Source: Octopus sinensis
Lineage: Eukaryota
Reading direction: 5' to 3'
Length of the DNA stretch: 64,000 nt
NCBI RefSeq assembly: GCF_006345805.1
Contig: NC_043010.1
Span: 59,024,001 to 59,088,000 of the forward strand
The translations under genes were made by a program, and so were the position numbers. Under the pieces are notes generated by a model. The model searched no databases. It saw only the letters and a list, made by a program, of their open reading frames with translations, and was not told the origin of the DNA. Positions 5,066 through 63,189 of the stretch are shown piece by piece. How positions within the stretch are numbered: position 1 is the stretch's first letter; every line of letters begins with the position of its first letter.

Positions 5066-5125
5066 AAGATTGTTATTCATGTTGTTGTTTATGTATTTAT
5101 TGAATATTTGTTGTTTTTATTGCAG

Positions 5126-5790
5126 GAGAGCGTCCTTACAATTGCTTCTCGTGTGACAAGACATTTGCCCAAAAGGCTCATTTGACCATTCATCAACGCA
5201 CACACTCTGGAGAGAAACCTTTCAACTGTGGCGTATGTGGCAAAAGTTTCCCTCAAAGGGTCCACATGCAGAAACATGAACGCAGTCACAGCAGCGAAGA
5301 ACTGATGCGTGCCGGTGTCACACTTCACGTACCAACTGTCCGGCAGCAGCAGCAACAACCACCTCCTTTGTCCCCTTCCCCTCCTTGTTCAGGGCCAAAT
5401 TCCTCATCTCCTCTTATGACAAGCTGCAATTGCAACTGTACCTGCAACCTGCTCATGTGCACGCAATGCTCCCCAAATGCATCGCCGTCACCAATCCCCA
5501 TTGCATCTCCATGCAACATGCAAATGAATCAGAGATTGACGACAATTTCTTCCGCATCCATTGCAACAATCTGTCCCCGACAGATGTCCGGCCGGTCGGC
5601 GTGCGTCACCCCAACACCTCCGCTCTCTCAGGGCAATCTCTCTCAACAGTCAAACTATTGCACGGCTCGCAGTTACCCTGGCAACTCCACCAAGTGGAGC
5701 AACAACAACAACAATAGTAATGTCGCCATGTGTTTACCTTCCTCTTCATGTGGCAAAAACATGAAACAAAACATGCATCAAAGAAGTTGA
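5126..5790 (+). CDS. C2H2 zinc-finger gene A, last coding exon (2 fingers plus Q/P/S/C-rich tail)
   Basis: Acceptor tttttattgcag|GA restores [12 protein letters not shown] in phase 1; continues into the 5182-5790 ORF and ends at TGA. Confidence 0.88.
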
Positions 5791-21636: not shown

Positions 21637-21905
21637 TATTATTACTATTACTACTACTGGTCTGTTGTATCTTTTATCAGGTGTTCCACCTCCCTGTCAG
21701 AGCTGATAAAAGACCACAGCTATCCACAATCCATGCTACAGGAACATATCAACTTTTCCAGTCTTGATATTCAGATTAAACTGTTTCTATTCCATAGACA
21801 TATTCTACATTCTGCAAGGAATCTTTTGTCGGCAGAAAATCCAGGATACTTTCATTATAACCAAACTCTGTCTGTTTAATGCTGTCACTTTGAAGAACTT
21901 TAACA

Positions 21906-23438
21906 ATGGAGAAAACCTTCCGGCAAAAACTCCTTGCCAAATACAGTAATCTGAATAACAGAAATGGGAAAAAGTTCTCCTTTCTCAAGAACTTCTCCTC
22001 CAATTCTTCTGAAAGTGCTCCTAAAAAGTTCTCCTTTCTTAAGAGTCCTTCTACAAATTCTTCTGAAAATCCTACAAAAAATGCCAGAGAAAGCAAAGTA
22101 ACTTTGCAACGGGCTTTTTTTTGTGACATCTGTGACAAATCTTTCTCTCGAAGTAGTTATTACAGCTGGCATAAAATGAACCATTCTCTTGGCGAACCGG
22201 TGCCAAAAATATCACTGAGCAAAAGAAAACAAAAACTCTGTACGACCCACAAATGTGATATCTGTGAGAAAGTCTTCTCTAGGTTTGAGTATTTACGACT
22301 TCACCGACTGAGCCATGTTGAGGAGAAACCATTTTCTTGTGAGACTTGTGGACAGTCCTTCATACAAGCTAGTCTGCTAAGAAACCATGAGAAAACTCAT
22401 GCTGATGGCAAAATCTATAAATGTGAAGTTTGTGAAAAAGAATTTTCTAAGAGTTGTGATCTAAAACGCCATCTCAGTGTCCACCTGAGTGTGAAGCCAT
22501 TTAAGTGTGAGATTTGCTCTCGCAATTTCTCAAGGAACGACTATTTGAAATCTCACATGCTGAGTCACACAGGCAGCACCCCATTCAAATGTAAAACTTG
22601 TGGGAAAGGATTTGTCCGACGGTTTGCTTTAGAAAACCATGCAAGGACACACACAGGGGAAAAGCCCTACGTCTGTAGCATTTGTGGGAAAACTTTCTCT
22701 CAAAAATCAGGCTGGATGTCACACTCAAAGAACCATATTGACAAAAAGGCTTTTGTATGTCGAGTTTGTGGGAAAGGGTTCACACAGATGTACTCGTTGA
22801 AAAGGCATGAACGCACGCATGCTGACAAAAAACCTTACAGTTGTGAATATTGTCAGAAAGAGTTCTCACAGAGTGGACAGCTAAAGTCCCACCTGGCCAT
22901 TCATACAGGAATCAAACCATTCAAATGCGAAGTGTGTGGTAAAAATTTTGCCCAAAAATCCATCTTGACAAAACATGAGCGGATTCATGCTGAAATTAAA
23001 CCGTACAGTTGTGAGGTGTGTGGCAAAGGGTTCACACAGAACTTCACCTTACAGATACACCTGAGGAACCATACAGGTGAGAAACCTTTCTCCTGTACTT
23101 ATTGTGATAAAGTGTTCTCCCGTAAAGACAGTTTAAATAATCACATCAAGAACCATACAGGTGAGAAAGATTTCTGCTGCCGATATTGTGATTCTGCTTT
23201 CACAAAAAGTTCCACGTTGAAGCGACATGAGATGACCCATACCGGGGAACGACCTTATGTTTGCCAAATTTGTTCCAAGGCTTTTGCAAAGCCAAGCGAT
23301 CTCAACCGTCACATGATTACACACACTGGCGCCAAACCCTATACCTGTAATATATGCGGGAAGGCATTCTCTCGTAATGAGCACCTCAAAAAACATGAAA
23401 CTACTCACTCGCTCACTTACCAACCATGGCTACTCTAA
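21906..23438 (+). CDS. C2H2 zinc-finger protein B, 510 aa, 15 fingers, CDS in one exon
   Basis: Uninterrupted ORF with 15 CxxC-x12-HxxxH fingers and TGEKP-type linkers; upstream acceptor cttttatcag| at 21680. Confidence 0.95.
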   Translation: MEKTFRQKLLAKYSNLNNRNGKKFSFLKNFSSNSSESAPKKFSFLKSPSTNSSENPTKNARESKVTLQRAFFCDICDKSFSRSSYYSWHKMNHSLGEPVPKISLSKRKQKLCTTHKCDICEKVFSRFEYLRLHRLSHVEEKPFSCETCGQSFIQASLLRNHEKTHADGKIYKCEVCEKEFSKSCDLKRHLSVHLSVKPFKCEICSRNFSRNDYLKSHMLSHTGSTPFKCKTCGKGFVRRFALENHARTHTGEKPYVCSICGKTFSQKSGWMSHSKNHIDKKAFVCRVCGKGFTQMYSLKRHERTHADKKPYSCEYCQKEFSQSGQLKSHLAIHTGIKPFKCEVCGKNFAQKSILTKHERIHAEIKPYSCEVCGKGFTQNFTLQIHLRNHTGEKPFSCTYCDKVFSRKDSLNNHIKNHTGEKDFCCRYCDSAFTKSSTLKRHEMTHTGERPYVCQICSKAFAKPSDLNRHMITHTGAKPYTCNICGKAFSRNEHLKKHETTHSLTYQPWLL

Positions 23439-26216: not shown

Positions 26217-28039
26217 ATGTATGTATATATATATGCATATGTGGGCACAGGACATCACAAAACGTGTACAACAAAAAAGTATGAAGCACGAGTGTGTGTG
26301 TGTGTATAAATATATTATCTTTTTTTACATCTGCTTTCAAAGCTGGTATGAGTTGGATGATTGAACAGGATCCAATGAGTCAGAAGATGATGTCTTGTTC
26401 CAATCTCTTAGTTTTAAGATCGTTTCTACTGCCGAATGCCCTTCCTGACGCCAATTGCTTTGCAGTGAGGTTGTGAGGTTGCCTTGTACCTTGCAAGACT
26501 TAACGAGATGTTGAGATGTTAATGCATGACAGGAGATGTAGGGACAGTTTTGTTGTGGGAGAGATTCATGGCTACTTATGTATTTGCTATGTGTTGATGG
26601 GTTAGGCTGGAGCGGGGCCACAAAAAGGGATAAATATGGTGGCGGTGAGATGTTAGAACCTATCTTCATGGTAAGATGTCCTAGAAGGGGAATAGAAGAG
26701 CATGTGGAGATAGAAGAATCAGCATGGATGGGCAAGGTGGCACGAAGAGAGGGTGAGGGTTGAATATAAGCATGGAATGGAGGTGGTCAGATGTAGATAT
26801 GGGGTGAATGGTCAAAAGAGGTAGGGCTGGTCAGCAGATGTTATGAGTGTGGGTGCAATGATAAGAATGAGGGGTGGATGCCAGTTGGACGTAGTGCAGG
26901 CGAAAGGAAGTGGTGAGTGGCAGTACATAAATGGTGACACCAGATGGTTTGTAAGATCAGGTTCTAAAGTAATCGCTTACGTCACAATCAGATCCCTGTA
27001 TTTCTTGCTCCTGTTGCCCTGACCATTCCCTTTTACTCCTTCACTCTTTACAAGGCTATATCCCTCCACCCTTTACTGTCCATAACGTTCAACACTCACC
27101 TAAAGGTCCAGTATATAGACACATAGTCTATAGTGACCAGCTGTTGGACCTACTGCGACCAATCTTCACCCTACAAATAAATAAACTGCTTGACTCGCTT
27201 GAAATAGCAGACAATTCGCACTCTACTCTTTTCACAAACAGGAAGAACAACATGATAACAAAAACCCTACATACATTGTCGTCATAGAGATGGTATGGTC
27301 AGAGCTGGAGTGTCGATGATCATGGAAGTAAACAACAATAATTTAACTGACATACTCATGTTGTTATTGTTGTTGTTGTTGCCAGAATGAGTTTCCTTCC
27401 AACTTAAGATGTTTTCATCTGTCGTTTGTTGTCCATCTGGTGACTCAACATCAGGTCTACTAAATCTACACTGTCTGTACTGTTGATACACTACATCTAC
27501 ACTGTTTCTACACTGTAAGTGTCCCGTTTGTGAACTGTCGATTCCACTGTCTCAAAAGTGATATTCTTTCCCTTTTGTATGTGACACACACACATGAAAT
27601 GAAATGAATAAACCTGTTTAAGCAGCCAAAGTTGTTGTTGTTCTTGTGGCACCTGTCCCTTCCACAGGGTAACACACCTCAGACCAGCTGTTGGTACCTG
27701 ACACCCTCCTCTTCTTGATGTATTGGAACTCTGGGATAACAGTTGATACCCCAAGGTAATTGTACAGTATGGTAAGTATTGGAACACCCTGGAAGCTCTC
27801 TTAGAACATAATCAGGAATGGTGGTTCACAAGAATAATTGTTGGTACACTGGACATTTTTGTTTTCAGTTTTGAAAAACAAAAGAAAGAAATAAAAAAAT
27901 ATTATCAAACAAAAATCGGTCGTTAAGGATGCAGATTTAATGAATTTTATTTTTTACAATGTTTGACTTAATTTCATTTCTCACCATCATTAAATGAGGA
28001 ATGTCTGAGTATTGAGTTTAATTTTAATCAAACTCGGTG

Positions 28040-30337: not shown

Positions 30338-31236
30338 GGAGAGTGGTTGGTGTTAGGAAGGGCATCCAGCTGTAGAAACTCTGCCAGATCAGACTGGAGC
30401 CTGATGCAGCCTTCTGGCTTGCCAGACCCCAGTTGAACCGTCCAACCCATGCTAGCATGGAAAGCGGACGCTAAATGATGATGATGATAATATTATAAAT
30501 GTAATAATTTCATAGTAGGCATGTATATGCAGAAAACATGTATTGGATCTCCTATCCATAATTCCTCAGATGAAGATTCAAAAATAGCACTATGTTTCTT
30601 TGATGAAATTGCCATTTATAGTTTATAGAATTTATTAGGAGTCTGTTGAGACGGAGGGATAAAAAAGTATCATGAGAACAGCAATAAAGTATTTTGGTTT
30701 TTGAGTTCAGAAAAGCACTTGGATCTTGTGACTGTTTTTAGAATGATTCTCCTGTTGGCAAAGCAAAGCCTGCAACATTTACTTCCAGTCAGATGTGGTC
30801 AACGTTGTTCCAGCAGGGTAAAGGCAAAACAAGCGTCACCCAATTTGATATTGGGGACTTTTTATCCATCTACACCAAATGGGTTGTTAGGGTACTTAAT
30901 TTCACTAAGAAGTTTACCAATGACAGAGATATAGATGTAATAATTCATGTCAGAAAACCCAGCTTTTTAATGAAATTGCAGCCTGGATCAGACAAACAGA
31001 TCCAGAAGATCGCTTCGTTGTGACTTTGTTTCTATGTTTTTATCCTTTTTATGAAACTAGGCTGGGTCCACTACACCATAAAAGACACTTCAAATGTTTC
31101 TCAGTTTCTTCAAGTATTTCACAGCTGCTAATGATGGGGATTATCTTGCCTTTGTCTTTATATACACAAGATGTATGAAGGGTGTGGAGCCCCTAAACAG
31201 CCACAAAATTTCTTGAAATAATAGTCAAATCTCCAT

Positions 31237-32317
31237 ATGGTGAAACTCTCTGCAATGGGTGTGGGGGATGACCTTTTTAACTGGTTGAAATCCTTCATCC
31301 TCAGCCGAAAGGAGGTAGTCACAGTTCTAGGACAGCACTCTACACCATATGAGATGTCATCGGGTGTACCACAGGGATCTGTCCTTGGTCCCCTCCTGTT
31401 TGTGGCATACATTAATGACATAGATACCAATTTAAAGAATGCCACAGTATTGAAATATGCAGACGACATCAAGCTGTACCTTGAAATCAAGAGGACTGAT
31501 CCTGATGTCTACAACTCTTTCCTGCAATCAGACCTAGACACAATGCAGCAATGGATCACAGACTGGCAACAGAAACTGGCTGTGGACAAGTGTACCACCA
31601 TGCATTTTGGGAGAAAAAACCCTGCGTCCACATACTCCCTCCACAACACTGATATCAAGAAATCCTCTTGCGAGCGTGACCTAGGCATCACTGTCAGCAG
31701 TGATTTGCGTTGGACAAAGCATATCTCTAAAATTGTCAAGAAGGCCGAGGGTGTCTTGGCATCACTCAGCAAGACTTTTGTTAGCCGCTCTCCAGCCATC
31801 TATTTAAAACTGTATACAGCTATGGTACGACCACACTTGGAATTCGCATCATCAGTTTGGAATCCCTATCTTGCTCAGAACATTGACCTCCTGGAATCTG
31901 TCCAGAGACGTGCAACCAAACGCATACCCTCCATCAGACACCTACCATATTCTGAGCGCCTTGTTTCCCTGGGCATGGATTCACTGAAGCTCCGGCGTCT
32001 GGCGACGGACTTGGTAAACACCCACAAGGTTATCAACCACCTCACCAACAACAACACTGAACACCTTTTTGATCTCCATGTGTCTAACACACGTGGACAT
32101 GCCTACAAAGTCAGAAAACAACACAGCTCCCATGACTTTCGGAAACATTTTTTCACGCTCAGGGTTGCTGAAGCGTGGAATAAACTGCCTGCATCAGTTG
32201 TTGACTGCCATGACACTGCATCCTTTAAGGCCCTCATGCTTCCCGAAATCCGTCGAAACTACACCTGATTATATATACACTTTAGATGAGTTGTAGTGCA
32301 CCTGAGCACTGTACACA

Positions 32318-35140: not shown

Positions 35141-35172
<32 letters not shown>

Positions 35173-35183
35173 GGTTATAAGAC

Positions 35184-35230
35184 TATATATATATAGGAAC
35201 CAACAGTTGCTGACATACAACACTTCAGTT
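35184..35230 (+). promoter_or_regulatory. Putative core promoter: TATA-like TATATATATATAGG plus Inr-like TCAGTT
   Basis: TATA run 35184-35195, TCAGTT at 35225-35230 and ATG at 35252; GC-box-like CCCCGCCCC near 34910. Confidence 0.55.
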
Positions 35231-35251
35231 AAAATTCTTCAAGAACACAAG

Positions 35252-35306
35252 ATGAAGCTTCTGCTAGTCGTTACCATTTCTCTCTTCATAGCCCTGGCTG
35301 TTGGCA
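35252..35306 (+). CDS. Secreted micro-exon peptide gene, exon 1 (signal peptide MKLLLVVTISLFIALAVG)
   Basis: ATG in aagATG context; K plus hydrophobic core plus AVG cleavage motif; perfect GTAAGT donor, phase 1. Confidence 0.85.
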
Positions 35307-35477
35307 GTAAGTATTATTAAATCTGTCTTCTAATCCTGCTGCTGCTGGTCTGCTTATCCTTTAATCTCTGCTGCTGCTGCAGCTGGACTCAGTCTCTAAT
35401 TCCGTTACTTGTGACTCAGATGTAACTTTGCTGTATCTCTATATTGTAACATTATTGCAACTCTGTGATATCGCTTT

Positions 35478-35935
35478 TCTCCTCTAGGCACAAGGCCCGA
35501 AATTTTGGGGAAGGGGGCCAGTCAATTAGATCGACCCCAGTATGCAACTGGTACTTAATTTATCGACCCTGAAAGGATGAAAGGCAAAGTCAACCTCAGC
35601 GGTATTTGAACTCAGAAGGCGGCGAGCTGGCAGAAACGTTAGCACGCCAGGCGAAATGCTTAGTGGTATTTCGTTTGCTGTTACGTTGTGAGTTCAAATT
35701 CCGCCAAGGTCGACTTTGCCTTTCATCCTTTCGGGGTCGATAAATTAAGTACCAGTTATGCACTGGGGTCAATGTAATCGACTTAATACCTATGTCTGCC
35801 CTTGTTTGTCCCCTCTGTGTTTAGCCCCTTGTGGGTAATAAAGAAATAGGTTTTGAACTCAGAACGTAAACACAGATGAAATACTGCTAAGCATTTCGCC
35901 CGGCGTGCTAACGTTTCTGCCACCTCACCGCCTTT
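35478..35935. mobile_element. SINE (+, 35618-35851) inserted in a same-family SINE (-)
   Basis: 13-bp TSD TTTGAACTCAGAA at 35605-35617 and 35852-35864. Confidence 0.85.
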
Positions 35936-36702
35936 ACTCCTATCTCTGGTGGAACTCTGTAGGAACTGTTATGGATATTTGCCATAATGCTAGACATGGA
36001 CTCAGCGAGGATTCCAAGGGGTGGAGTGACAAGCAGGTCAGTGGTGGGGATGCTTCAGAAGTAGGGGTATGGGACAAGACAGCGCCAAAGAATAAAGGCT
36101 ATTGAAGTAGTGATGAAAAGTCAGAGACAGGAGCTTGCCATAGTGGGGTGGGGGCCATGGATGGAATATGTCTGTTAGTGATTTGATGTCAATTTGTCAA
36201 GTGGCCCTCATCTGAATGTGAGTCACAATGTCTGTGTGTACATTGCAACAGAACCATCTCCCAGGTCTTTGCATACATGCATATGTGTGTGTGTATGTGT
36301 GCACATGCATGTGTGTGTGTGTGTGCATATATGTGTATGTGCATGTGTGTGTGTATAAAATGAGATGAAAAGGGAATTAACAAAGTCTTATGTGGGATTT
36401 GTCTTATAAAATATGCTAATTACTTTACTCACAGCTACACATGTATAATATTGTATATCTAAACAGCGATTCTCTCAGCAATATTTCACTGTCTACAGTA
36501 AAGTCTATGTTTTGCTAAAGAGGCCTAATACAATGGAAAGATGTCAAGGGTTGTCTCCCAATTAAGACACTACTAATGTTTCATCCAATACATTTTCCTG
36601 ATGGTATAATTATTTTTAATTAGCTGTGTAAAGTGATTACACAAAGTATGGCCTCTTAACTGTTGTCTTTTTCTATTAATCTTCTTTTCTTTCTATTTTC
36701 AG

Positions 36703-36726
36703 CTCCTAATATTGATGACATTAAAT
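36703..36726 (+). CDS. Secreted micro-exon peptide gene, exon 2 (24 nt, TPNIDDIK)
   Basis: Long pyrimidine tract plus ttttcag acceptor; GTAAGT donor; phase 1-1. Confidence 0.78.
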
Positions 36727-38329
36727 GTAAGTTATTTCCTTGACATCGTTCAATATTCATAACAATACATATTGATTTCTAGCAATAACAAGTAGGGGTG
36801 GGGCCTCTGAAAGGGGTCTCAGGGAGTAGCATGTCCTTGCCTTCCTGAGCTAGTTTGCCACCACATTTCTTAAAAATCGTGGTAGAGGCCTTTGTCTCAG
36901 GACCACTCATGTCTAGAAACTGAGGTTGGGGGTTCTTTCCGTAGAAAATCCAGCTCTAAAAAAGCCTCATGATAGCAAAGGAGAATAGGCACCAGCCAGC
37001 CCAAAGGTTGGGGTGGGTTGCACCTGCCTACCTCGGTTGCTATGGCATTGAGGTAGATCCATCCACCCCCATTAACAGGCACAAAACCTGGATTTAAAAC
37101 AATGGATGATGATGATGCTGAACACAAGATGGCAACCATGAAGAGGTGGGGGAAGTCATTTCTATTGATCTCTGGTAATATTGGTTCCAAATTTTGTTAC
37201 AAGATCAGAAGTTTTGAGGGGAGGGGATAAGTTGATGAAATACCCCCCAGGGCTTGAGAGGTGCTTCTTATTTTATCAGCCCTGAAGGGATGAAAGACAA
37301 GGTTGACATTGGCAGAGTTTGAACTCAGAATGTAACGACAGACAAAAGGCCACAAAGCATTTGGCCCTGCATGCTAAAGATTTTGCCAGCTTGCTGCCCT
37401 CGTCTTTGGTAATATTAATTTCAAATTTTGGCACAGGGCCAGCAATTGTGGGGAAAAGTGAAAATCAATTACATCAACCGCAGTGCTCACTTGGTTCTTA
37501 TTTTATCGACCCTCCCACCCAAGGATGAAAAGCAAGGTCGGAACATAAAGAAAGACAAAATGCTGCTAAATATTTTGCCTCGCATGGTAGCAATTCTCTT
37601 GGCTCACTGCCTTATGATCTCTGGTGATATTGGTTGATATTTTATTGACCTGGGGAGAATGAAAGATAAAGTTGACTTTAATGAGGATTGAACATGGAAT
37701 CTGAACGACACATAATGCTATTCATTATCCTTAGTAAAATTTTACACTTTTACGGGTTTCAGTCATTGGACAGCAGCCATGCAAGAACACCACCATCAAG
37801 CATTCTGAGGTGTCATACATCAACCTCACTATAATGTATAGGTGGCTGAGTACTACTCAGACAATTGCTGTGCCCGTAATGTAATTCTCAGTGCAGAATC
37901 ACCATTACACAGAACGTGACAAGGACGGACCTTGTTGTGTTACAGGTACAATGGTCATCAGGCACTTTTATTTTTATTAGTCTTTATTTAGTGAATGGCT
38001 AAGTTACACTCTCAGCTAAACAAATATATCTCCATCAGAACTATATTCCTTTGCTGCACCTACTTCTGTTTTCTTACATGCACTCACACACACACACACA
38101 CACACATGTAATATATATGTACACATATATATATATATATATATATATGAAACGTATGTAGTTTTTTACTTATTATATATTGATCATTCATTTTTACGCT
38201 TTTTGAGATCTGGTTTTATGTTTTATAAAAATATATATTTTTTGTTATTTATGTTTTGGTTTATGTCTATCACTGTTTGAGTTGCATAATGGTGGTTTTA
38301 CCTCTAATTCATATATATATATATATATA

Positions 38330-39225
38330 TTGGGTCATCCCATAAATAATACGTTTTTCCTTATACTTCTTTTACTTTACAAAATTAAGAGAAACAAAGT
38401 TCTTTTTTAATCTAAAATATACTCTCCTTCATTTTCTACAATGCTCTCCCATCTATCTGCTAGACTTGCAGGGCCTCTCTTCCAAAATTCACTTGTCTGT
38501 GATAAAAAATACTCCTCCAGTTCTGTTCTGACCTTGTCTACAGAATTCATTTTCTTTCTGTCCAAATGATTTTGAGGACTGTGGAATAAATGATAATCAG
38601 ATGGGGCAATATCTGGCGAATATGATGGGTGGGGGCATCGTTTCCCATTTAAACTGCTCCAGCCTTTGGACTGTCATCCTCGCTGCATGTAGCCAAGCAA
38701 TATCTTGATGTAAGGACACCTTTCATCTTGAAACCTAAGATGTTCGTTTTTCTTCTAGCACTGACTTGAATGATTGGTTGAATGACCAAGCTTCTCTGCT
38801 ATTTTCTCAACAGTTACAATGGGATTTTGTTCCACCAGGGTTTGAAGGACCTCCTCATCAAGCTCTACAGATCTGCCAGGACAAGGCTGTAGTTTTTGGC
38901 TTAGAATTTCTGGAACCACCATTGACACTGGCTAATGCTTATTGTCTGATCCCTATATACTCCATTAATATTCCTCACACTTTCCATTGCATTGTTGCCT
39001 TTATTGAACTCATAAAGCAAAATATGCCGAATATGCTCCTTTGTCACTTCCATTAAAGCTTTTGAAAAAATAACTGCACTCTTCAAAACTTGCACAAAGA
39101 ATAAGTACAAAGTAAAATTACTACCTGCTTTTATAGCAACTTGATGCAGGTAGTTTATCCAGTCCCCCTCTGGCTTTTAGTTCATTCAGTTGAAAAAAAA
39201 AAACATTATTTATGGGATAACCCAA
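38330..39225 (-). mobile_element. Internally deleted mariner element
   Basis: TIRs TTGGGTCATCCCATAAATAAT / ATTATTTATGGGATAACCCAA with TA flanks; MEVTKEHIRHILLYEF...WFQKF and HPSYSPDIAPSDYHLF motifs. Confidence 0.9.
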
Positions 39226-39314
39226 TATATATAAATATATAGACACACACACACACACACACACACATACAGAGCAATATTCCTACTGACATCAGAGTAT
39301 TTTTGTTATTTCAG

Positions 39315-39338
39315 TCGATATTGTTGGAGCTAAAACAG
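39315..39338 (+). CDS. Secreted micro-exon peptide gene, exon 3 (24 nt, FDIVGAKT)
   Basis: Branch-like tactgac, tttcag acceptor, CAG|GTGAGT donor; phase 1-1. Confidence 0.78.
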
Positions 39339-40942
39339 GTGAGTGATGGATTTCATCCATTTCCCATTGTTCTGTCAATGCGTTAATTACTTTCATCATC
39401 ATCATCATCAGCATCATTGTCATCATGTAAAAACAAGAGATCAAGAGAGTATATTGCTTATCCAAGCCAAATTCCTGCTTTTGCAACTTGTGTTACACAG
39501 CATGCATATATGTGTGCATGTATATATATATATGTGTGTATGTATATATATTTATATATGTATGTATATTTATATATAACAAGAACGTAACAGATGATAA
39601 CAAAAACATATGGACAGATGGACGATACAAAGATGGACAGTAAAACCAGGAAGAAACATTCATGGCTTTCTATTCATCAGTCAGGCTTCCAGTTATCACT
39701 ACAGTTTCAGCCTGTTACACTTGAGACTGTTCAATATTGGTAGGCCCCAAAAATCCAAGCTAAGGGCATTCAATTTTTGGAAGAAAGTGAGCAAATATGT
39801 GTGACAACACGGACAAAAAAAAAAACAAGAAAACGGAGAAAATATTACACAATTACAATTACAAACAACAAGAATAACAACAGATATCTTTCGACTAAAA
39901 GGACAAGTTAAGTTAAGTTGGCGTGTGAAGTGGAAGCCTTACTGACGCAAGCAAAAGATAAAAGATGGAATTTTAATGGGAAGTTTTAATCTAAATCCCT
40001 TTAAAACAGAGAGTCTGTAGCATAAAAGCAAGGATAGTCTCAAGGAGTTTGGTATTAAAAGAATTTAACCAAAATTGGTTCTATTCCTTAAAAAGAATCT
40101 TGGCACACTTCCAGTTCTCCTTCATTTCATCTTCACTGAGCTGTGTCTTCTCCAATTCACCATTCCTACAATGGATTCTGTTGTCTTAGAAATCATTTTT
40201 CTGGCAATGTTTGTCCATTCCACTCTGTCATGAATTTTCCTGACCCAAATCCACAACCATAACCCCATTGCCTACTGTTTTGTTTCAAGTCCTGCTCAGA
40301 GACATATGATCAAAAGAATGCCAGCCATGACCATTCCATCATTAGATCTAGAAATATCCATGGCCCTACCTATTCCAATGTCTCTCTCAATCACTAGCTG
40401 AGCTACTGTGTAGTTGCTCAAAATGCTAGAAATAGCAGCCACCTCTCCCTCAAATCACACATATCACTACCATTTTAGAAAATGAATCATCAAATGTGAT
40501 CCTGGATTCTTTGCACATAAGAAAAAGATAGGATGGTCACGTTTGGAATGCCTTTGATCATAGGTCTGCTCAAAAATGCATGACAGCTAACTGAAGCCTA
40601 TATATGGCCACTCCACCATCCAGAAATAACAGCCAAATCCCTCTAATATTACACCCTACCATTCTTTAGAGTAGGAAGGAGCCATTGGATGATGTAATAC
40701 TAGGTGAACTATGCCTGAAAAAAGACCGATGGGATGGTCACTGTGGGATTAACTTTGATCAGGACTGACCTGGGGCTAAGCTTTAATAGCAACTAACTGA
40801 ACATGAGCCATATTAACTGAGTTATTATCCTTTATCCCTGTCTGGATTGTTCTGGAACAATTAGGGGGTGGGGGGAGAATCTCCCCCCCCACCACTCATT
40901 AGTTTTCTCATTAGATTAATGAATTCATTGATTACTTTGCAG

Positions 40943-40984
40943 CTGTGTCAAGTGGAGGGTCTGCTGAGAAACGAGCATTCAATG
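40943..40984 (+). CDS. Secreted micro-exon peptide gene, exon 4 (42 nt, AVSSGGSAEKRAFN)
   Basis: tttgcag acceptor, ATG|GTAAGT donor; phase 1-1; carries the KR site. Confidence 0.78.
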
Positions 40985-40999
40985 GTAAGTAGACACTAC

Positions 41000-41026
41000 T
41001 AATACTACTACTTCTACTACTACTAT

Positions 41027-41077
<51 letters not shown>

Positions 41078-41180
41078 CACTACCACCACCACCACCACCA
41101 CCACCACCACTACTGCTGCTGCTGCGGCCACCACCACTATCACCCATACTACTACTACCGCCACCACCACCACCACCACC
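41000..41180. repeat. Compound trinucleotide repeat (CTA)n(CCA)n
   Basis: Visible directly in the sequence. Confidence 0.9.
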
Positions 41181-42149
41181 ATTTGTACCTGGCCCTTCTC
41201 AGTTGACAGCATCATATGCCTTTGAAAGGTTGACAAAGACTAAAATGCTGCTCTCATCAATTCTCCTGCAGTTGGCAGGTAGCAATCACTATGACAACTG
41301 TCTCACAACCTTCTCTAAGGCCACACTGCTTCTGAGACAAGAGTCTTAGTTCCTTGTGTACAGTATTATGGGTCAACAAATGAAGATCTTTCTAGCAGAC
41401 AACAGCAGAGATATAACCCCTCAGGGGTTGCCACAGCAATGAAAATCCTCTTTTCTTGTAAAGGTGGACGATTAGGCCATCCCTGAACTCTAGTGAGATG
41501 ACTTCCTGGTACCACACTGAGTGGAAGAGTTAGGAAATATTTAAATCAAAGACCTCCAATCAAGTATATCTCAGCTGTAAGATGTCATATCCTGGGACCT
41601 TGGCACTTGATAGGGCTCCTGTTGCCTTTCTGAACTCATCACCAGTAGAAAGGTCAGAAGATGAATTGTTGGCCCCTGGTTGCAAGAAACAAGATATTGC
41701 AGCTCCATTGACACTGGCAGGACAGTTCAGCACACAGTAGAGATACTCAATCATCTATCAACAGTGCTAATCTGTTGGTGCTTAGTGGCAGAAATGATGG
41801 GGCATATGGGATGCAGACAGTCCCCAATGATAGAAAGGTGAGATGGAGGAGACTTGATATCTGTGGACCAGAGTTTAAAGTATGAATGAAGAATGACACC
41901 TTGCCAGTCGATGAGGTGGCCATATTTTCAATGGTGACTTGATATTTTCATTATAGCAGCAACAGTAATTCTGTGGGAGTTTCCTTAAAGCTCTGTTGAG
42001 GATTGTTGAGGGCTGAGCTATTTTCTGGCTCTACTTTCAATCCTTCTAGTTTTTGGTAATGTCAATATCAAGTGTTGTAAACGTTGTTATTGTTGTTGTT
42101 GTTATTGTTGTTGTTGTTCAACTTCTGTTCAACTCTGATCAGGCAGACT

Positions 42150-42428
42150 TACAAGGGGGTACCCAAAAGTAACCAGAAATGTTCTCTGTGGCGCAAACCC
42201 ATTGTAGTTCCTTGCTCTCTGCAAGATGTAGAAAGTTGACAACTGAGGCATTAAAAGGCATCCCTTCACAAGAGTTCCAGGACTGCTTCGAACAGTGGAA
42301 AAAGCGTCTGGACCAATGCATGGCTTCAAATGGAGAATACTCTGAAGGCAATGAAAGTGTTGACATGTAAAAATATGTGAATAAAATGATATTACTAAAT
42401 TCCAGTTTCTTTTGGGTACCCCCTCGGT
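42150..42428 (+). mobile_element. Short mariner deletion derivative
   Basis: TIR core GGGGGTACCCAAAAG / CTTTTGGGTACCCCC; FQDCFEQWKKRLDQCMASNGEY matches the mariner C-terminus. Confidence 0.8.
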
Positions 42429-42617
42429 TAAGCAAAATTATCTCACTTGTTCCAGCCTGGACCATCTCACTTTGTTTTATGTGTCCTTCCTTCTATTAAA
42501 GTGTCATTTGTAGAAGATTTAGCTATCATTTCTAGCCTGTCGAGTGACTGCTGTTGTTGTTGTTGTTGTTGTCACAACTGATGTTATCCTTCTAACAATG
42601 GCCCTTATCTCTTCCAG

Positions 42618-42688
42618 GAGGTCCATCCGAGGGAGGCAGTGGTAACGATTTAAAAGCTTTGGAGATGAAAGAGATGGAACTGAATTAA
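42618..42688 (+). CDS. Secreted micro-exon peptide gene, exon 5 (GGPSEGGSGNDLKALEMKEMELN*)
   Basis: Branch-like ttctaac and ctcttccag acceptor; in frame to TAA; AATAAA at 42925 and 42947. Confidence 0.78.
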
Positions 42689-42924
42689 CTGGCACCATTA
42701 TTCTTGTTGTTCCTATCGCTATGAAGAAATGTTCAAGGAAACATGAAAATCCTGCAGACTTTCAGCCAAACATTTAAGAAACTTCCTCTAATATTCCTTC
42801 CCAGTTCTTGCAGTAATCTGGAAGATTCCAGATGTTGTCTACCTGGAAACTTTTAAACTTAATTTCCATGAAAATTCCATTTGTTGATGGCGGAACATTC
42901 TGGATGTTTCCAGTTTGATGTTGA

Positions 42925-42952
42925 AATAAAAAGAACAACCTTCATCAATAAA
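42925..42952 (+). terminator. Polyadenylation signals of the micro-exon gene
   Basis: Two AATAAA about 240-260 nt after the stop, followed by a T/GT-rich stretch. Confidence 0.6.
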
Positions 42953-45010
42953 ATCTAAATTCTAATGTCTCCATGTTTTACTCTTTATTTGTCTTATCGT
43001 ATACCATTACAGAAATACATGTGGACCATGTAGACAATATCATAACACTGCTTTAGAGATATACATGTGGACAATGTTATAACTTTGTAAAGATACATGT
43101 GGCCATGTAGCCAAAAATCTATTTTATCTTGTAACCAATAGTATACCACAGTAACAACACATGTAGCCATGTTACCATGTGGCCAACCTAAGCAAAAGAA
43201 CATGTAGGAAGGATAAGTGAGTTAGTTTGTTTATAAATGAATGGAAACTGAATGAGTAAATAAGAGTTAATAGACTTAATTTAAGAAATCAAGGGATTTC
43301 AAATATCAGCCACTTAGGTACTCTAGAACACACACACACACACATGTGCACAAACAGACTCACACACACAAACACACACATACACACACATGAACATGCA
43401 CACACACACACGCACACATACAGACACACAAACACATACAAGTGAAAATTACTGTCATAGAAGCAATGTTCAAATTGAGTCTTCCATCCAAAATATGTCT
43501 GGCTGAGAGGAAATAATTCCATGCTCAGAAACGGGTGACAAGCAGGGCATCTGGCCATAGAAAGTCTTCTTCAACAAATTCCATTAACATAATGGTACAA
43601 TGTTTGACAGTCCGATGTCAGAATGCTAATGTAGCTTAGGTTAGGAATAAATAACAGGAGTCACATGTTTACATTTTTCTAAGCCATTAATGCTTCATTT
43701 AAACAGTTGCAGGGAGAAGATTCCAGTGGGATGATGTTCTGAGGAGGAAGGAATGGACATGGTTGTTAGTGTGAGGCCAAGGTTGGACACAACATGAATG
43801 ATGATTGATGAGAAACAAGTGGGTTGGGGGTGCCTGACGGGAGGAGGTTCAAGACCAGCCATCTTCAAGACACTGAGGTCATGGTTTTAACAATATAAAA
43901 GACAGGGAGGGAGAGAGCGGAGATGGAGGCTGGAGCAGGGTTTTGACCGATTTTAAGCCCATCATTTATTTTGAGTCTTGGTGTAAAATTACATTTACAA
44001 ATGCCATTTCAATAGCCCACAAATGATGCCAGATCCTTTGTAGTTCAGCATGGTTATATATTTTATGTACTATTCTAAAACAAATTTGCACGAGCTGCAC
44101 ATGGAGAAATATCAGTGTATTCACACAAACTGCATTTTGTTTGATATGTAGAAAAGGCAGCTTTTGAGAAGTTTTGGTTGATTAGAACACCACGTCAAAA
44201 ACCAATCAACAAGATTTTATAAATTTTGATTTTTTTTATTTTCATTGTAAAAAAAAATAAATTTTTTCTTAATAATCTGAAAATGCTAATTATTCTTATG
44301 TTTGCTTTGACAAGAAAAGCTTTATCTGAACATTAAAAATAACCTTGCCTTTTTGTCATACAGAATATTCAGCTCAATTTTAAAGATTATTTCCCCAAAA
44401 TGAAAGTACATTAGAATGATTTCATCCGAATGTACTCTTACTTAGATATAAAGGTGTGAAGTCTAGACTCCAATCAGAAACAATTAATCAAAGAATTTAT
44501 AGGATAATGGTAAGTTCACTTGATAAAAGGAGGGTAAAGTCTAAAATTGATGATGATTTTATTTTAGTCCCAGGTCAGCCGTAATTGAGTGGGTTAAACG
44601 TTCATGGATGACCTCATCTTTTTCTTCTTTGTATTTCCTTATCCAATGTGTCGTTCTTTCTCAAGAGGTCAGGTGTAGTTTGACTGAAATTTGGATGCTC
44701 GTTCTAGCAGGCTGAACAACTGCTTAGAGACTCTGTTGTTGGTTTGGGTCAAAATTAAGAGCAATACGAAGGTCATTGCTAACCTGGTCCACTCTCTGTT
44801 GAAGGGCAAGAGTCTGTTAAACTTTTTACATCTTCATGGCCATTAAGCTCACAGATATTCCAAAGAACTCTCCTAAAACAAGATGTCCAGAAGCTATGAA
44901 CAACATGGCTACCTTCTTACATTCACTCTTTCTACATTGCTTTTGTTTCTAATATTTTCCATATTCTCTTCAATGTTAACTTTCATATTACATTAAAATA
45001 AGGTAACTCT

Positions 45011-48780: not shown

Positions 48781-49456
48781 AGAATGTTACACCAGTTCTG
48801 AAATTTTTCAAGGAAATCATTATAGATTATAAACATTTTGTACATATTTTAGGACTGACTGATATTCATGATTATAGGAAAATGTTTCAAATTTATTTGA
48901 CAATAACAAGTATTGCAGTAACAGCTCCATATTAAAATATCTTCTCTATTCTTCATCATTACCACTGCTGGTTTAATCCTGTTCCATCAGTAAACCGGCT
49001 GCTGCTGCTGCTGCTAAACAAACTCCCTGTCCATTCTGTCTGGAACTTACAACTTTCTGAAAACTGATCCAACCATTTCATTTCCAAATTTGCATTGTCT
49101 ACTTCAGCTTGAATCGTAAACTTCTGTTTTTTTATTCCCCCTCATCACCCATTCCTATTACTTATCAATAAACTTGTCTCCATTGCTGTTAGTATCCAAT
49201 CACTGTTTTACTGCTTCTTCTGCAATGAACCTTACATCTATCCGTGCACTTCATGTAACACAAACTTCACATAATTTTGCTGTGGGTCTTTTACATACAG
49301 TAGTCTTGAACTATTATTGTTAGTGAAACATACACTGCTTTGGACCCTGGGCCTCACTGAAGAAAGACAGCCAGGAGGTGTGGTGCTTTGCTGTACTTGA
49401 GAAAACGTGCCAAGTAAAATCATTGTCAGCCATACGTAAAAGCGTCTCTTTTACAG

Positions 49457-50420
49457 GTGCCACATTAAATGCACTTGTGCCAGTGCCACATTAAATGCAC
49501 TTGTGTCGGTGCCACATTGAATGCACTTGTGTCGGTGCCACATTGAATGCACTTGTGTCGGTGCCACATTGAATGCACTTGTGTCGGTGCCACATTGAAT
49601 GCACTTGTGCCGGTGCCACATTAAATGCACTTGTACCGGTGTCACATTAAATGCACTTGTGCCGGTGCCACATTAAATGCACTTGTACCGGTGTCACATT
49701 AAATGCACTTGTGCTGGTGCCACATTAAATGCACTTGTGCCGGTGCCACATTAAATGCACTTGTACCGATGTCACATTAAATGCACTTGTGCCAGTGCCG
49801 CATTAAATGCACTTGTGCCAGTGCCACATTAAATGCACTTGTGCCGGTGCCACATTAAATGCACTTGTACCGGTGTCACATTAAATGCACTTGTGCCAGT
49901 GCCACATTAAATGCACTTGTGCCGGTGCCACATTAAATGCACTTGTACCGGTGCCACATTAAATGCACTTGTACCGGTGTCACATTAAATGCACTTGTGC
50001 TGGTGCCACATTAAATGCACTTGTGCCGGTGCCACATTAAATGCACTTGTACCGGTGTCACATTAAATGCACTTGTGCCAGTGCCGCATTAAATGCACTT
50101 GTGCCAGTGCCACATTAAATGCACTTGTACCGGTGTCACATTAAATGCACTTGTACCGGTGTCACATTAAATGCACTTGTGCTGGTGCCACATTAAATGC
50201 ACTTGTGCCAGTGCCACATTAAATGCACTTGTACCGGTGTCACATTAAATGCACTTGTGCCAGTGCCGCATTAAATGCACTTGTGCCAGTGCCACATTAA
50301 ATGCACTTGTACCGGTGTCACATTAAATGCACTTGTGCCGGTGCCACATTAAATGCACTTGTACCGGTGTCACATTAAATGCACTTGTGCCAGTGCCACA
50401 TTGAATGCACTTGTGCCTGT
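49457..50420. repeat. 26-bp minisatellite (GTGCCACATTAAATGCACTTGTGCCR), about 37 copies, inside a LINE 3' UTR remnant
   Basis: Tandem units flanked by LINE-tail sequence. Confidence 0.95.
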
Positions 50421-50764
50421 GCTGCGTAAATGCACCCATGCTGGTGGCACGTTGAAAGCACCCAGTGCAATCTGTAAAGTGGTTGGCATTAGGAAGGGCA
50501 TCCAGCTGTAGAAACCATGTCACAATATCTCCCCAGCTGGCCAGCACGGAAAACGAACGTCAGATGAGGATGATAATGAAAGGCCCAGTGGCTGGCAATA
50601 GAAATTAATATTAACACAATATGAGAGGACTCTGCTATCTGTCGTCTCCAAGGACGTGTTAGGGAGCTATTATGAAGCCACACTCCTTTATTTTGGCCTC
50701 CACTGTTTGGACATCCATTCAGCCAAAGAGTCTGGGGTTCTGCATGTTGCTTGACATATTACTC

Positions 50765-57089: not shown

Positions 57090-59817
57090 CATCATCATCA
57101 TCATCATCATCATCATTTAGCGTCCGTTTTCCATGCTAGCATGGGTTGGACGGTTCTACTGGGGTCTGTGAAGCCAGAAGGCTTCATCAGGCCCAGTCAA
57201 ATCTGGCAGTGTTTCTACGGCTGGATGCCCTTCCTAACGCCAACCACTCCGTGAGTGTAGTGGGTGCTTTTTACATGCCACCCGCACTGGTGCCAGACAG
57301 AGCTGGCAAACGGCCACGAACGGATGGTGCTTTTTATGTGCCACCGGCACGAGGGCCAGGCGAGGCTGGCAACGGACACGAAACGGGGCGGTGCTGGCAA
57401 CGGTCGCGAAGCTGAAAGTTCTCTTACATGCCACCGGCACTGGTAACACATCTGCAATTTCCATTGATCGATTTCCATTGATCGATTTCTATTCTGATCC
57501 TGACTTGCATCAATGGGTCTTCACAAGCAGAGTTTCGACACTGGTAACACATCTGCAATTTCCATTGATCGATTTCCATTGATTGATTTCGATTCTGATC
57601 CTCACTTGCCTCAATGGGTCTTCACAAGCAGAGTTTCGGCACTGGTAGCACATCCGCAATTTCCATTGATCGATTTCGATTCTGATCCTCACTTGCCTCA
57701 ACACGTCTTCACAAGTAGAGTTTTGTGTCCCAAGAAGGGAAGGTATGCATACGTAGGCTGGCTCCATCCCATGTAGAAGGCCACGGGTTGTGGACTCACT
57801 TGTCCTGCCGGGTCTTCTCGCGCACAGCACACTTCCAGAGGTCTCGGTCTCTAGTCATTTCCTCAGTGAGACCTAAAGTTCGAAGGTCGTGCTTCACCAC
57901 CTCGTCCCAGGTTTTCCTGGGTCTGCCTCTTCCACAGGTTCCCTCAACCGCTAGGGTGTGGCACTTTTTCACACAACTATCTTCATCCATTCTCGCCACA
58001 TGACCATACCAGTGCAAACGTCTCTCTTGCACACCACAACTGATGCTTCTTAGGTCCAGCTTTTCTCTCAAGGTACTTACACTCTGCCGAGTGTGAGTAC
58101 CGGCATTACACATCCATCGGAGCATACTGGCTTCATTTCTAGCGAGCTTACGCATATCCTCAGCAGTCACGGCCCATGTTTCACTGCCATGTAGCATGGC
58201 TGTTCGTACACACGCATCATACAGTCTGCCTTTCACTCTGTGCGAGAGGCCTTTTGTCACCAGCAGAGGTAAGAGCTCTCTGAACTTTGCCCAAGCTATT
58301 CTTACTCTAGCAGTTACACTTTCAGCACACCCGCCCCTGCTGCTGACTTGGTCACCTAGGTAACGGAAACTATCAACTATTTCTAGTTTTTCTCCCTGGA
58401 AAGTGACGGAAGTTGGTCTCAGAGCATTTTCAGTGTTTATTGTTCCTGAGCATCTGCCACATACAAAAACCATCTTCCTAGTTAGCCTTCCTTTGACATT
58501 GCTGCATCTCTTATGTGTCCATAGCTTACACTTGGTGCATCTTATAGAGTTTCTACCTACACCTTTTCTACAGATCGAGCAGGGCCATCTACCTGAAGGT
58601 GTTTGTGATTTGTCTACCTTCCTACTGATTACGACTTTGGTTTTAGCTAGATTGACTCTGAGGCCCTTCGATTCTAATCCTTGTTTCCACACCTGAAACT
58701 TCTCCTCCAGTTCTGATAGCGACTCAGCAATTAGAGCAAGGTCATCAGCATAGAGGAGCTCCCAAGGGCATCCTGTCTTGAATTCCTCCGTTATTGCCTG
58801 GAGGACTAAGATAAATAGGAGGGGGCTGAGTACTGAGCCTTGGTGGACCCCTACCTCTACCCGGAATTCTTCACTGTACTCATTTCCAACCCTCACCCTA
58901 CTAGCGGCGTCCCTATACATGGCCCGCACAGCTCTCACTAACCATTCATCTATCCCTAGTTTTCTCATTGCCCACCAGATAAGGGATCGGGGGACCCTGT
59001 CGAAGGCTTTCTCCATGTCAACAAAAGCCAGGTACAGGGGCTTATCTTTGGCTAGGTATTTCTCCTGCAGCTGCCTTACCAGGAATATAGCATCAGTAGT
59101 ACTTTTCCCTGGCACAAACCCAAACTGCATCTCATCTAAACTAACTCTCTCTCTAATTAGTTGGGCTATGACCCTCTCCGTAACCTTCATCACCTGGTCC
59201 AACAGCTTGATACCTCTGTAGTTATTTGTATCTAGGGCATCACCTTTACCTTTGTAGCAGTTGACTATTATACTGCTACACCAGTCATTGGGTATGACCC
59301 CTTTGTGTATCACCTGATTAACTATATGGGTGACTAGGCTATAGCCGACACTACCAGACATTTTGAGCATCTCTGCAGTGATTCCTGATGGGCCTGGGGC
59401 TTTCCCTGTCTTCATGCTTCTAATTGCCTTAGCTACCACAGAACTATCAACTCGGATAGCTGGTCCCTCTGTTGGGTCAACATTCGGCAGACTCTCTTTA
59501 TCCCATTCATTTTCTTCATTCAGCAACCTTTCATAGTGGCATCTCCAAACCTCTCTCTTTGCATCCTCATTTAGCGCAAGTGAACCATCTTCCATGCGAA
59601 CACACTTCTCTCCTACCACATCACGATTCTCTCTCACACACTGTCTTGCAACACGAAACACCTCCAGTCTTTGGTCCTCACGGCGCAGAACATTGGCAAA
59701 TTTTTTCTTATCTGCTTCCCCTCTGGCTAAATAAACCTGTCTCCTAGCTTCTCTTTTGGCAGTCTGATACAATTCCCTGCTACCCCCATTTTTCCAGACC
59801 TTCCAAGCCTGTCTCTT
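57090..59817 (-). mobile_element. Young 5'-truncated RTE-like LINE; ORF 57796-59772 encodes RT plus PHD-type finger; tandemly repeated 3' UTR and (GAT)n tail
   Basis: 658 open codons with KAPGPSG, NYRGIKLL, QFGF, FVDMEKAFD, GVHQGSVLSP, YADD, FRYLG and GRGRPRKTW motifs. Confidence 0.95.
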
Positions 59818-59921
59818 ATTATTTAAGGGTTTGTAGTTGTGATGATTGTCACTGTGGTGAATATCTGATCTTACGTAGTTATAATATTATGTAATATCTG
59901 ATTTTACAGATATAATAATTA

Positions 59922-62595: not shown

Positions 62596-62644
62596 GTATA
62601 AATGCTGCATGTAATTGTCTCTAGGTAGACTTCTCCATTTTCAG

Positions 62645-63018
62645 ACAGTCACTTTGTTAAAAGCCTCTCTATCCAAGTGACTGACATCAACGATGTACAA
62701 CCACAGTTTACCAAAGATACATTCCAATTCCTCACCTATGAAAACAAAGATAAAGACTTCCCTATTGGGTTTGTCAATGCCACTGACCCTGATAACACAG
62801 CTGCTGCCACAAAGAATACAGCCTACCAAGGTAGAGCAGAGATGAAACAATTGTTGTACCAGACTAACACTTCTGTTGCTATGTCGAGGAATGCAGAAGA
62901 GATGGTGAAGCGGAATATCTATTTTGAGAGATCCAAGAGTGAATGTTATGCAGAAGGTCAGCTACAGAACAAATATGAATCTTCAGTTCAGTCGAGAACT
63001 TTACCAAAACCTACCCCA
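62645..63018 (+). pseudogene. Internally deleted protocadherin exon: EC boundary fused to cytoplasmic-type sequence
   Basis: SIQVTDINDVQPQFTKDTFQFLTYEN...GFVNATDPD is followed directly by a hydrophilic tail with no TM segment; possible acceptor tttcag at 62644; donor CCA|GTAAGT at 63018. Confidence 0.75.
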
Positions 63019-63189
63019 GTAAGTGGAAACATTACATTTTCTCTCTGTAAAAGTGAACAATGAAATCTCTTTGAATATGTTTTAACTTCAATAATACATT
63101 CCAATATTAAATTGTTCTCTTTCCATGTTGATTGTAACTTCCATTGTTTGGTGTCTTCTCACATTTCTTTATCGTTTGTTTGTCAACAG

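Follow-up and report, generated by a model that had tools for sequence, protein, structure and literature searches.

A five-exon gene of Octopus with very short phase-1 exons encodes a predicted secreted peptide precursor of 71 residues

A 64,000-nucleotide stretch of the Octopus sinensis genome (the window; assembly GCF_006345805.1, contig NC_043010.1, positions 59,024,001 to 59,088,000, forward strand) contains a five-exon gene for a 71-residue protein that, judged by sequence comparison, is a real gene of Octopus. Its product is predicted to be a lineage-restricted secreted peptide precursor and adds to the numerous orphan secreted proteins of cephalopods. The gene had been proposed in a first-pass annotation made from the letters alone, and recomputation returned the same five exons, the same four phase-1 introns and the same 216-nt open reading frame (ORF), which ends in TAA (Table 1). 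The description of the gene as hidden did not survive, because it is already annotated, nameless and functionless, in the O. vulgaris and O. bimaculoides proteomes, where NCBI and UniProt list it as a hypothetical protein. Newly seen here are the invariance of residues 1-35, the confinement of interspecies changes to residues 36-71, a G-K-R versus E-K-R difference at a putative cleavage site, and an exon arrangement in which seven of eight exon-skipping combinations stay open.

Evidence that the gene is real comes from its orthologues. A 30-residue query taken from the exon 5 frame matched just one of 1,835,955,588 proteins at E<=0.001 (E 1.3e-5), and that protein is 71 residues long. The match, CAI9733520.1 of O. 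vulgaris (UniRef100_A0AA36FCW8, "hypothetical predicted protein"), agrees with the spliced model at 70 of 71 residues and across all four junctions. A query confined to one exon led in this way to the remaining four, in the order and register of the model. When CAI9733520.1 served as the query, one further protein was found (two candidates of 39-125 residues were compared), A0A0L8GYS9 of O. bimaculoides. It too has 71 residues, 62 of them identical to the spliced model and 63 to the O. vulgaris protein. The sole difference between the model and CAI9733520.1 lies at residue 16, which is Ala in the window's gene and Val in both database proteins. Start, stop, length, frame and all junction residues are kept in all three sequences, as judged by comparing the proteins. 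The variant encoded in the window is itself missing from the searched protein collection, and the database cluster has one member. As described in PMC10700109, the O. vulgaris annotation drew on transcripts, on ab initio gene models and on aligned O. bimaculoides proteins. The two database records are not wholly independent, because the O. bimaculoides proteome fed the O. vulgaris annotation; we infer that the O. vulgaris model is traceable to transcripts.

No relative outside Octopus was found among the two candidates of 39-125 residues or among 551 longer ones at E<=10, in searches that covered proteins of at least 39 residues and depend on common short words or on profiles; distant octopod or squid orthologues could escape them. 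The first-pass view of a lineage-specific gene accordingly holds for what has been found so far, which is in Octopus only. None of the same 551 candidates is a longer fused form. That the protein belongs to no known family agrees with Pfam, where it has no match at E<=10. Three weak PDB matches (E 0.84-4.5) were rejected, as all are Gly/Ser linkers of single-chain variable fragments (scFv). In the ESM Atlas the best feature score, 0.76, belongs to bacterial hypothetical proteins and is not usable, and the mature region is without a match. In the open-access library searched, no paper mentions the accessions or three sequence motifs, and the other searches there listed nothing recognizable as a report on this gene. 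Among sequencing runs listed as carrying exon 5 and the 3' untranslated region (UTR), none is on record as RNA; 20 of the 24 rows share half or more of the words, and they are not used as evidence in either direction.

Every exon is flanked by AG and GT, all four introns (1396, 2588, 1604 and 1633 nt) are of the GT-AG type, and each has a branch-point-like motif 15-47 nt 5' of its acceptor. Splice sites were ranked with a matrix built from rounded frequencies. By this measure the four donors rank 97, 49, 1 and 14 among the 3700 plus-strand GT dinucleotides of the window, the donor of exon 3 being the best of all, and the acceptors rank 15, 129, 213 and 2 among 3383 plus-strand AG dinucleotides. 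The weakest site is still within the top 6% of the window; the claim that all sites are strong was right about GT-AG and slightly overstated about strength. As whole units, internal exons 2-4 rank 5, 3 and 38 among 929 plus-strand candidate exons, and the top minus-strand candidate (n=846) scores lower than exons 2 and 3. Seven open symmetric phase-1 candidates lie within the gene, and exons 2-4 take ranks 1, 2 and 4 among them. The exon 1 ATG is the sole ATG in 35171-35260. The two AATAAA signals reported downstream are both present. The TATA and initiator (Inr) elements reported upstream correspond to a (TA)6 run and a TCAGTT, which do exist; as a promoter the call is weak, because TA runs are common in this genome and the spacing is about 6 nt longer than usual between TATA and Inr.

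Table 1. Features of the 71-residue gene, in window positions (position 1 is the first letter of the window)
Feature	Position	Strand	Description
Possible core promoter	35184..35230	+	(TA)6 at 35184-35195, Inr-like TCAGTT at 35225-35230; weak
Exon 1	35252..35306	+	55 nt; ATG and predicted signal peptide of 18 residues; phase-1 donor
Exon 2	36703..36726	+	24 nt; residues 19-26; symmetric, phase 1-1
Exon 3	39315..39338	+	24 nt; residues 27-34; symmetric, phase 1-1
Exon 4	40943..40984	+	42 nt; residues 35-48; symmetric; Ser/Gly linker and KR site (KR codons 40969-40974, Glu43 codon 40966-40968)
Exon 5, coding part	42618..42688	+	71 nt; residues 49-71 and TAA
Predicted 3' UTR	42689..42975	+	AATAAA at 42925 and 42947, then a T-rich stretch

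The longest coding piece of the gene is 23 codons, and the gene exemplifies a class that escapes ORF-based and homology-based scans. A scan for other genes that begin with a signal exon gave 56 candidates, 12 of them with an upstream TATA-like match. Eleven of these 12 read from microsatellites, as judged by eye, and the 71-residue gene alone remains.

DNA, protein and pattern searches, each limited to the candidates returned, found one copy of the gene in the source genome and no second copy or retrocopy. Exon 2 has one match there at up to three mismatches, exons 3 and 4 have one match each, and exon 5 is single copy. No paralogue appears in the 264 kb around the locus among the blastn and tblastn matches listed. 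The gene sits between C2H2 zinc-finger genes and a protocadherin-like array.

The N-terminus is a predicted signal peptide with a cut after Gly18. Signal peptidase prefers small residues at -1 and -3, and these positions are small in all three sequences, Gly at -1 and Ala or Val at -3. Residues 1-18 also have Lys2, a hydrophobic core and a hydropathy of 2.4-2.8, features that fit the signal-peptide-like start noted at first pass. The second landmark is the Lys-Arg pair at residues 44-45, present in all three sequences. It is preceded by Glu in the window's gene and in O. vulgaris, and by Gly in O. bimaculoides, one base apart. Gly-Lys-Arg is the classic signal for amidation plus cleavage. The statement that the protein lacks an amidation Gly before Lys or Arg is thus true of the window's gene and fails for O. 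bimaculoides, and the proposed KR cleavage gains modest support from that species. Gly accounts for 9 of the 27 residues around the site; G-K-R could therefore be chance, and is a modest hint only. A-to-I (adenosine-to-inosine) editing of Glu43 to Gly is unsupported: the best intronic partner is no better than shuffled sequence (22 of 40 shuffles as good). A 5' neighboring G disfavors such editing, and the Glu43 codon has one.

Conservation is unevenly spread along the protein. Residues 1-35 are identical between O. vulgaris and O. bimaculoides, and all eight changes fall within 36-71, two in exon 4 and six in exon 5, with exons 2 and 3 invariant. Over the whole protein this contrast has a scan-corrected p of 0.026.

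The reading given most weight, with a probability of roughly 0.4, is that the gene encodes a gland-type secreted precursor that is cut at the KR site and whose N-terminal peptide is the working part. Signal peptidase would take off residues 1-18, a prohormone convertase would cut after Lys44-Arg45, and a carboxypeptidase would trim the two basic residues. The predicted products are an acidic 25-mer (~2491 Da, isoelectric point (pI) 4.5) and an acidic 26-mer (~2694 Da, pI 4.3). Their monoisotopic masses are 2491.24 and 2694.23 Da, against 5451.66 Da for the intact form. For O. bimaculoides the predicted first product is a 24-mer with a C-terminal amide. The invariant residues 19-35 (exons 2-3) may bind a target, with the Ser/Gly-rich remainder as a tolerant tail. 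The source cell would be an exocrine gland cell (salivary/venom, skin or reproductive) and not a neuron, which is the least certain step. A gland is favored over a neuron because of the lack of relatives outside Octopus, the short same-phase exons, and absence from a mollusc-wide neuropeptide catalogue. For the last point, four motifs had no match in the parts searched of six supplementary files of PMC6425005, a compilation of proneuropeptides in which those of O. bimaculoides are included. Octopus salivary glands are reported to be rich in short secreted proteins that lack homologues beyond cephalopods (10.64898/2026.02.02.703354). The same work lists 27 gland superfamilies that are short, secreted, cephalopod-restricted and of undescribed function. 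The gene could belong to one of these unnamed salivary superfamilies, which bears directly on its novelty.

Several observations weigh against this gland-precursor reading. In the mature region alone the conservation contrast is not significant (longest-run p=0.30; 2 of 25 versus 6 of 26 residues changed, Fisher p=0.25), and, coming from two species, it is a lead rather than a result. One KR per 53 residues is unremarkable, and the prior for a Gly before it is about one in three. Venom families often form arrays, and this gene has no paralogue in the surrounding 264 kb among the matches listed or in the source genome. Proteome supplements for the salivary gland, skin mucus and ink of O. vulgaris gave no match to the accession or to tryptic motifs. 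These misses are weak, as most entries of the salivary tables are indexed by protein identifier, and as the files for salivary gland and ink were searched in part. Term searches of supplements took in PMC7693380, PMC10138644, PMC6425005, PMC10501145, PMC10142993 and PMC12607849.

The main rival reading, possible if doubtful, is that the gene encodes an octopod neuropeptide or hormone precursor that is made in neuronal or endocrine cells and acts on a receptor. The layout fits that of GnRH/AKH/corazonin-type precursors, in which a signal peptide is followed by an active peptide, a (G)KR site and a variable associated peptide. The G-K-R of O. bimaculoides, the invariant N-terminal part and the single copy all agree with this; the zinc-finger and protocadherin neighborhood says little about expression. 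The 71-residue protein differs from the GnRH/AKH/corazonin group in having no sequence similarity to it, no N-terminal Gln, no conserved amide and no relatives beyond Octopus in the searches made. The amide is usually essential and conserved in such peptides, whereas Glu replaces the Gly in the window's gene and in O. vulgaris. Moreover, the putative active peptide is spread over three exons, and its conserved end is the N-terminus rather than the end that would be amidated. Octopus neuronal marker genes of unassigned identity that carry signal peptides do exist (10.1101/2022.06.11.495763), although none of the three described there fits by its description. An exact-motif text search of the covered parts of the PMC6425005 supplements and of those of PMC10501145 (five files) matched none of four motifs.

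Secretion of the product without cleavage is an unlikely alternative. The 53-residue protein would then be acidic, mostly disordered and possibly O-glycosylated, would belong to mucus, cuticle or the coats of eggs or sperm, and its KR would be incidental. Structure prediction points in this direction. AlphaFold2 (AF2), run on a two-sequence alignment, gives a mean predicted local distance difference test score (pLDDT) of 60.6 and a predicted template modeling score (pTM) of 0.25, with a helix at 3-17 (the signal), a disordered middle below 50 and a weak helix at 58-70; the Atlas model has a pLDDT of 0.45. The composition is rich in Ser, Thr and Gly, and Ser56-Gly57 with nearby Asp59 is kept in both database species. 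According to PMC8418075, Ser-Gly near acidic residues is a place of glycosaminoglycan attachment, but the strict motif given there, E/D-G/A-S-G, is absent, since Gly occupies -2. O. bimaculoides, moreover, has Val in place of Glu53. The protein also lacks the repeats typical of structural proteins, and G-K-R is present in one species.

The exon arrangement invites comparison with the micro-exon genes (MEGs) of schistosomes. In both, a signal-peptide exon is followed by very small symmetric exons, the product is secreted (or predicted to be), and skipping would keep the frame; PMC4350168 describes MEG products as gland-secreted and MEGs as restricted to flatworms. The Octopus gene differs in that its three symmetric internal exons make up 90 of 216 coding nucleotides (42%) and not most of the coding region, in being single copy, and in that its exon skipping is in silico only; no homology is expected. 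The gene resembles a MEG in layout but falls outside the definition given for MEGs. In silico, seven of the eight combinations of internal exons keep the frame open, and the exon 2-exon 5 junction alone creates a stop. Skipping of exon 4 would remove the KR cleavage site. No exon-skipped isoform is on record among the database proteins matched. Exons 2 and 3 agree at 12 of 17 nt (p=0.022 before correction for the six exon pairs compared), which gives no more than a hint of exon duplication. A more ambitious proposal is quite improbable: that the gene is an octopus counterpart of the MEGs and founder of an undescribed Octopus family, with phase-1 modules of eight codons, a peptide set generated by exon skipping, and species-variable amidation. 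If exon skipping proved true, the MEG strategy would reach beyond flatworms.

Exon 5 opens with a potential third symmetric 24-nt unit (42618-42641), which ends in a weak internal donor (42641) and ranks third among the seven phase-1 candidates. No longer isoform using this unit is on record among the longer candidates searched.

The vertebrate SCPP (secretory calcium-binding phosphoprotein) genes, which include the caseins, statherin and histatin, offer a further analogy. They too have short same-phase exons and disordered, gland-secreted products, but their phase is 0 rather than 1 and there is no homology.

It is very unlikely that the gene encodes a toxin-like prepropeptide. In that case the C-terminal 26-mer, which changes faster, would be the active venom peptide, and residues 19-43 would serve as a conserved propeptide. 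Venom precursors usually combine a variable C-terminus with a signal and pro region that do not vary, six of the eight changes lie in exon 5, and the weak predicted helix at 58-70 is in the same segment. Against this, the predicted peptides have no Cys and, here, no amide; they carry net negative charge, have a low hydrophobic moment (0.12-0.17), and the gene has no paralogues. Nor does the gene match the octopus venom family SF1 (octopus tachykinins and octotensins) as described in 10.64898/2026.02.02.703354. Both are octopod-restricted, with a short precursor, a signal peptide and a dibasic site. SF1 genes, however, mostly have two coding exons and are arrayed in tandem, with FABP and NR-GRF as flanking genes, in contrast to five exons and zinc-finger and protocadherin neighbors here, and their tachykinin, neurotensin (RRPYIL) and myosuppressin motifs are all missing from the 71-residue sequence. 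Exon count, synteny and motifs thus all place the gene outside SF1 as described there.

A splice chain that arose by chance, or the translation of a non-coding transcript by annotation pipelines, is highly improbable: the database records are partly dependent and lack the window's variant, but a shared frame across three sequences, 35 invariant residues and the high ranks of the internal exons all speak against an artifact.

The gene offers a concrete, synthesizable candidate for an undescribed octopus signaling or gland peptide. Its two predicted products have defined masses, and a run of 17 residues is the same in two species.

Upstream, C2H2 zinc-finger genes occupy 21894-23438 (+; a 514-residue frame with 13 PF00096 matches) and 5104-5790 (+; a 228-residue exon with two matches). 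Downstream, a tandem array of eight plus-strand ORFs of 548-842 residues with near-identical N-termini begins about 31 kb from the gene and spans window-relative positions ~73,900-164,000. Presumably these are protocadherins, a name given from recognition of the sequence and not from a scan. A further ORF of this kind (826 residues, minus strand) lies about 130 kb upstream, at -98,757 to -96,280, and a short frame at 62629-63063 (+), ahead of the array, resembles a piece of a cadherin repeat and has no Pfam match at E<=0.001.

Retrotransposon reverse-transcriptase frames are found at 57796-59886 (-; 696 residues, PF00078, E 4e-32) and 31225-32268 (+; 347 residues, E 4e-18). Intron 1 carries copies resembling a short interspersed element (SINE) at ~35475-35870, which we take to be the octopus OK SINE; one begins at a strong cryptic acceptor, 35488. 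Two minisatellites are present, at 298-1579 (34 bp x 38 copies, 95% matches) and at 49456-50422 (26 bp x 37 copies, 92%). The top-scoring candidate internal exon of the window, at 27668-27771 (+; 104 nt, or 88 nt with a nearer donor), has no gene assigned to it.

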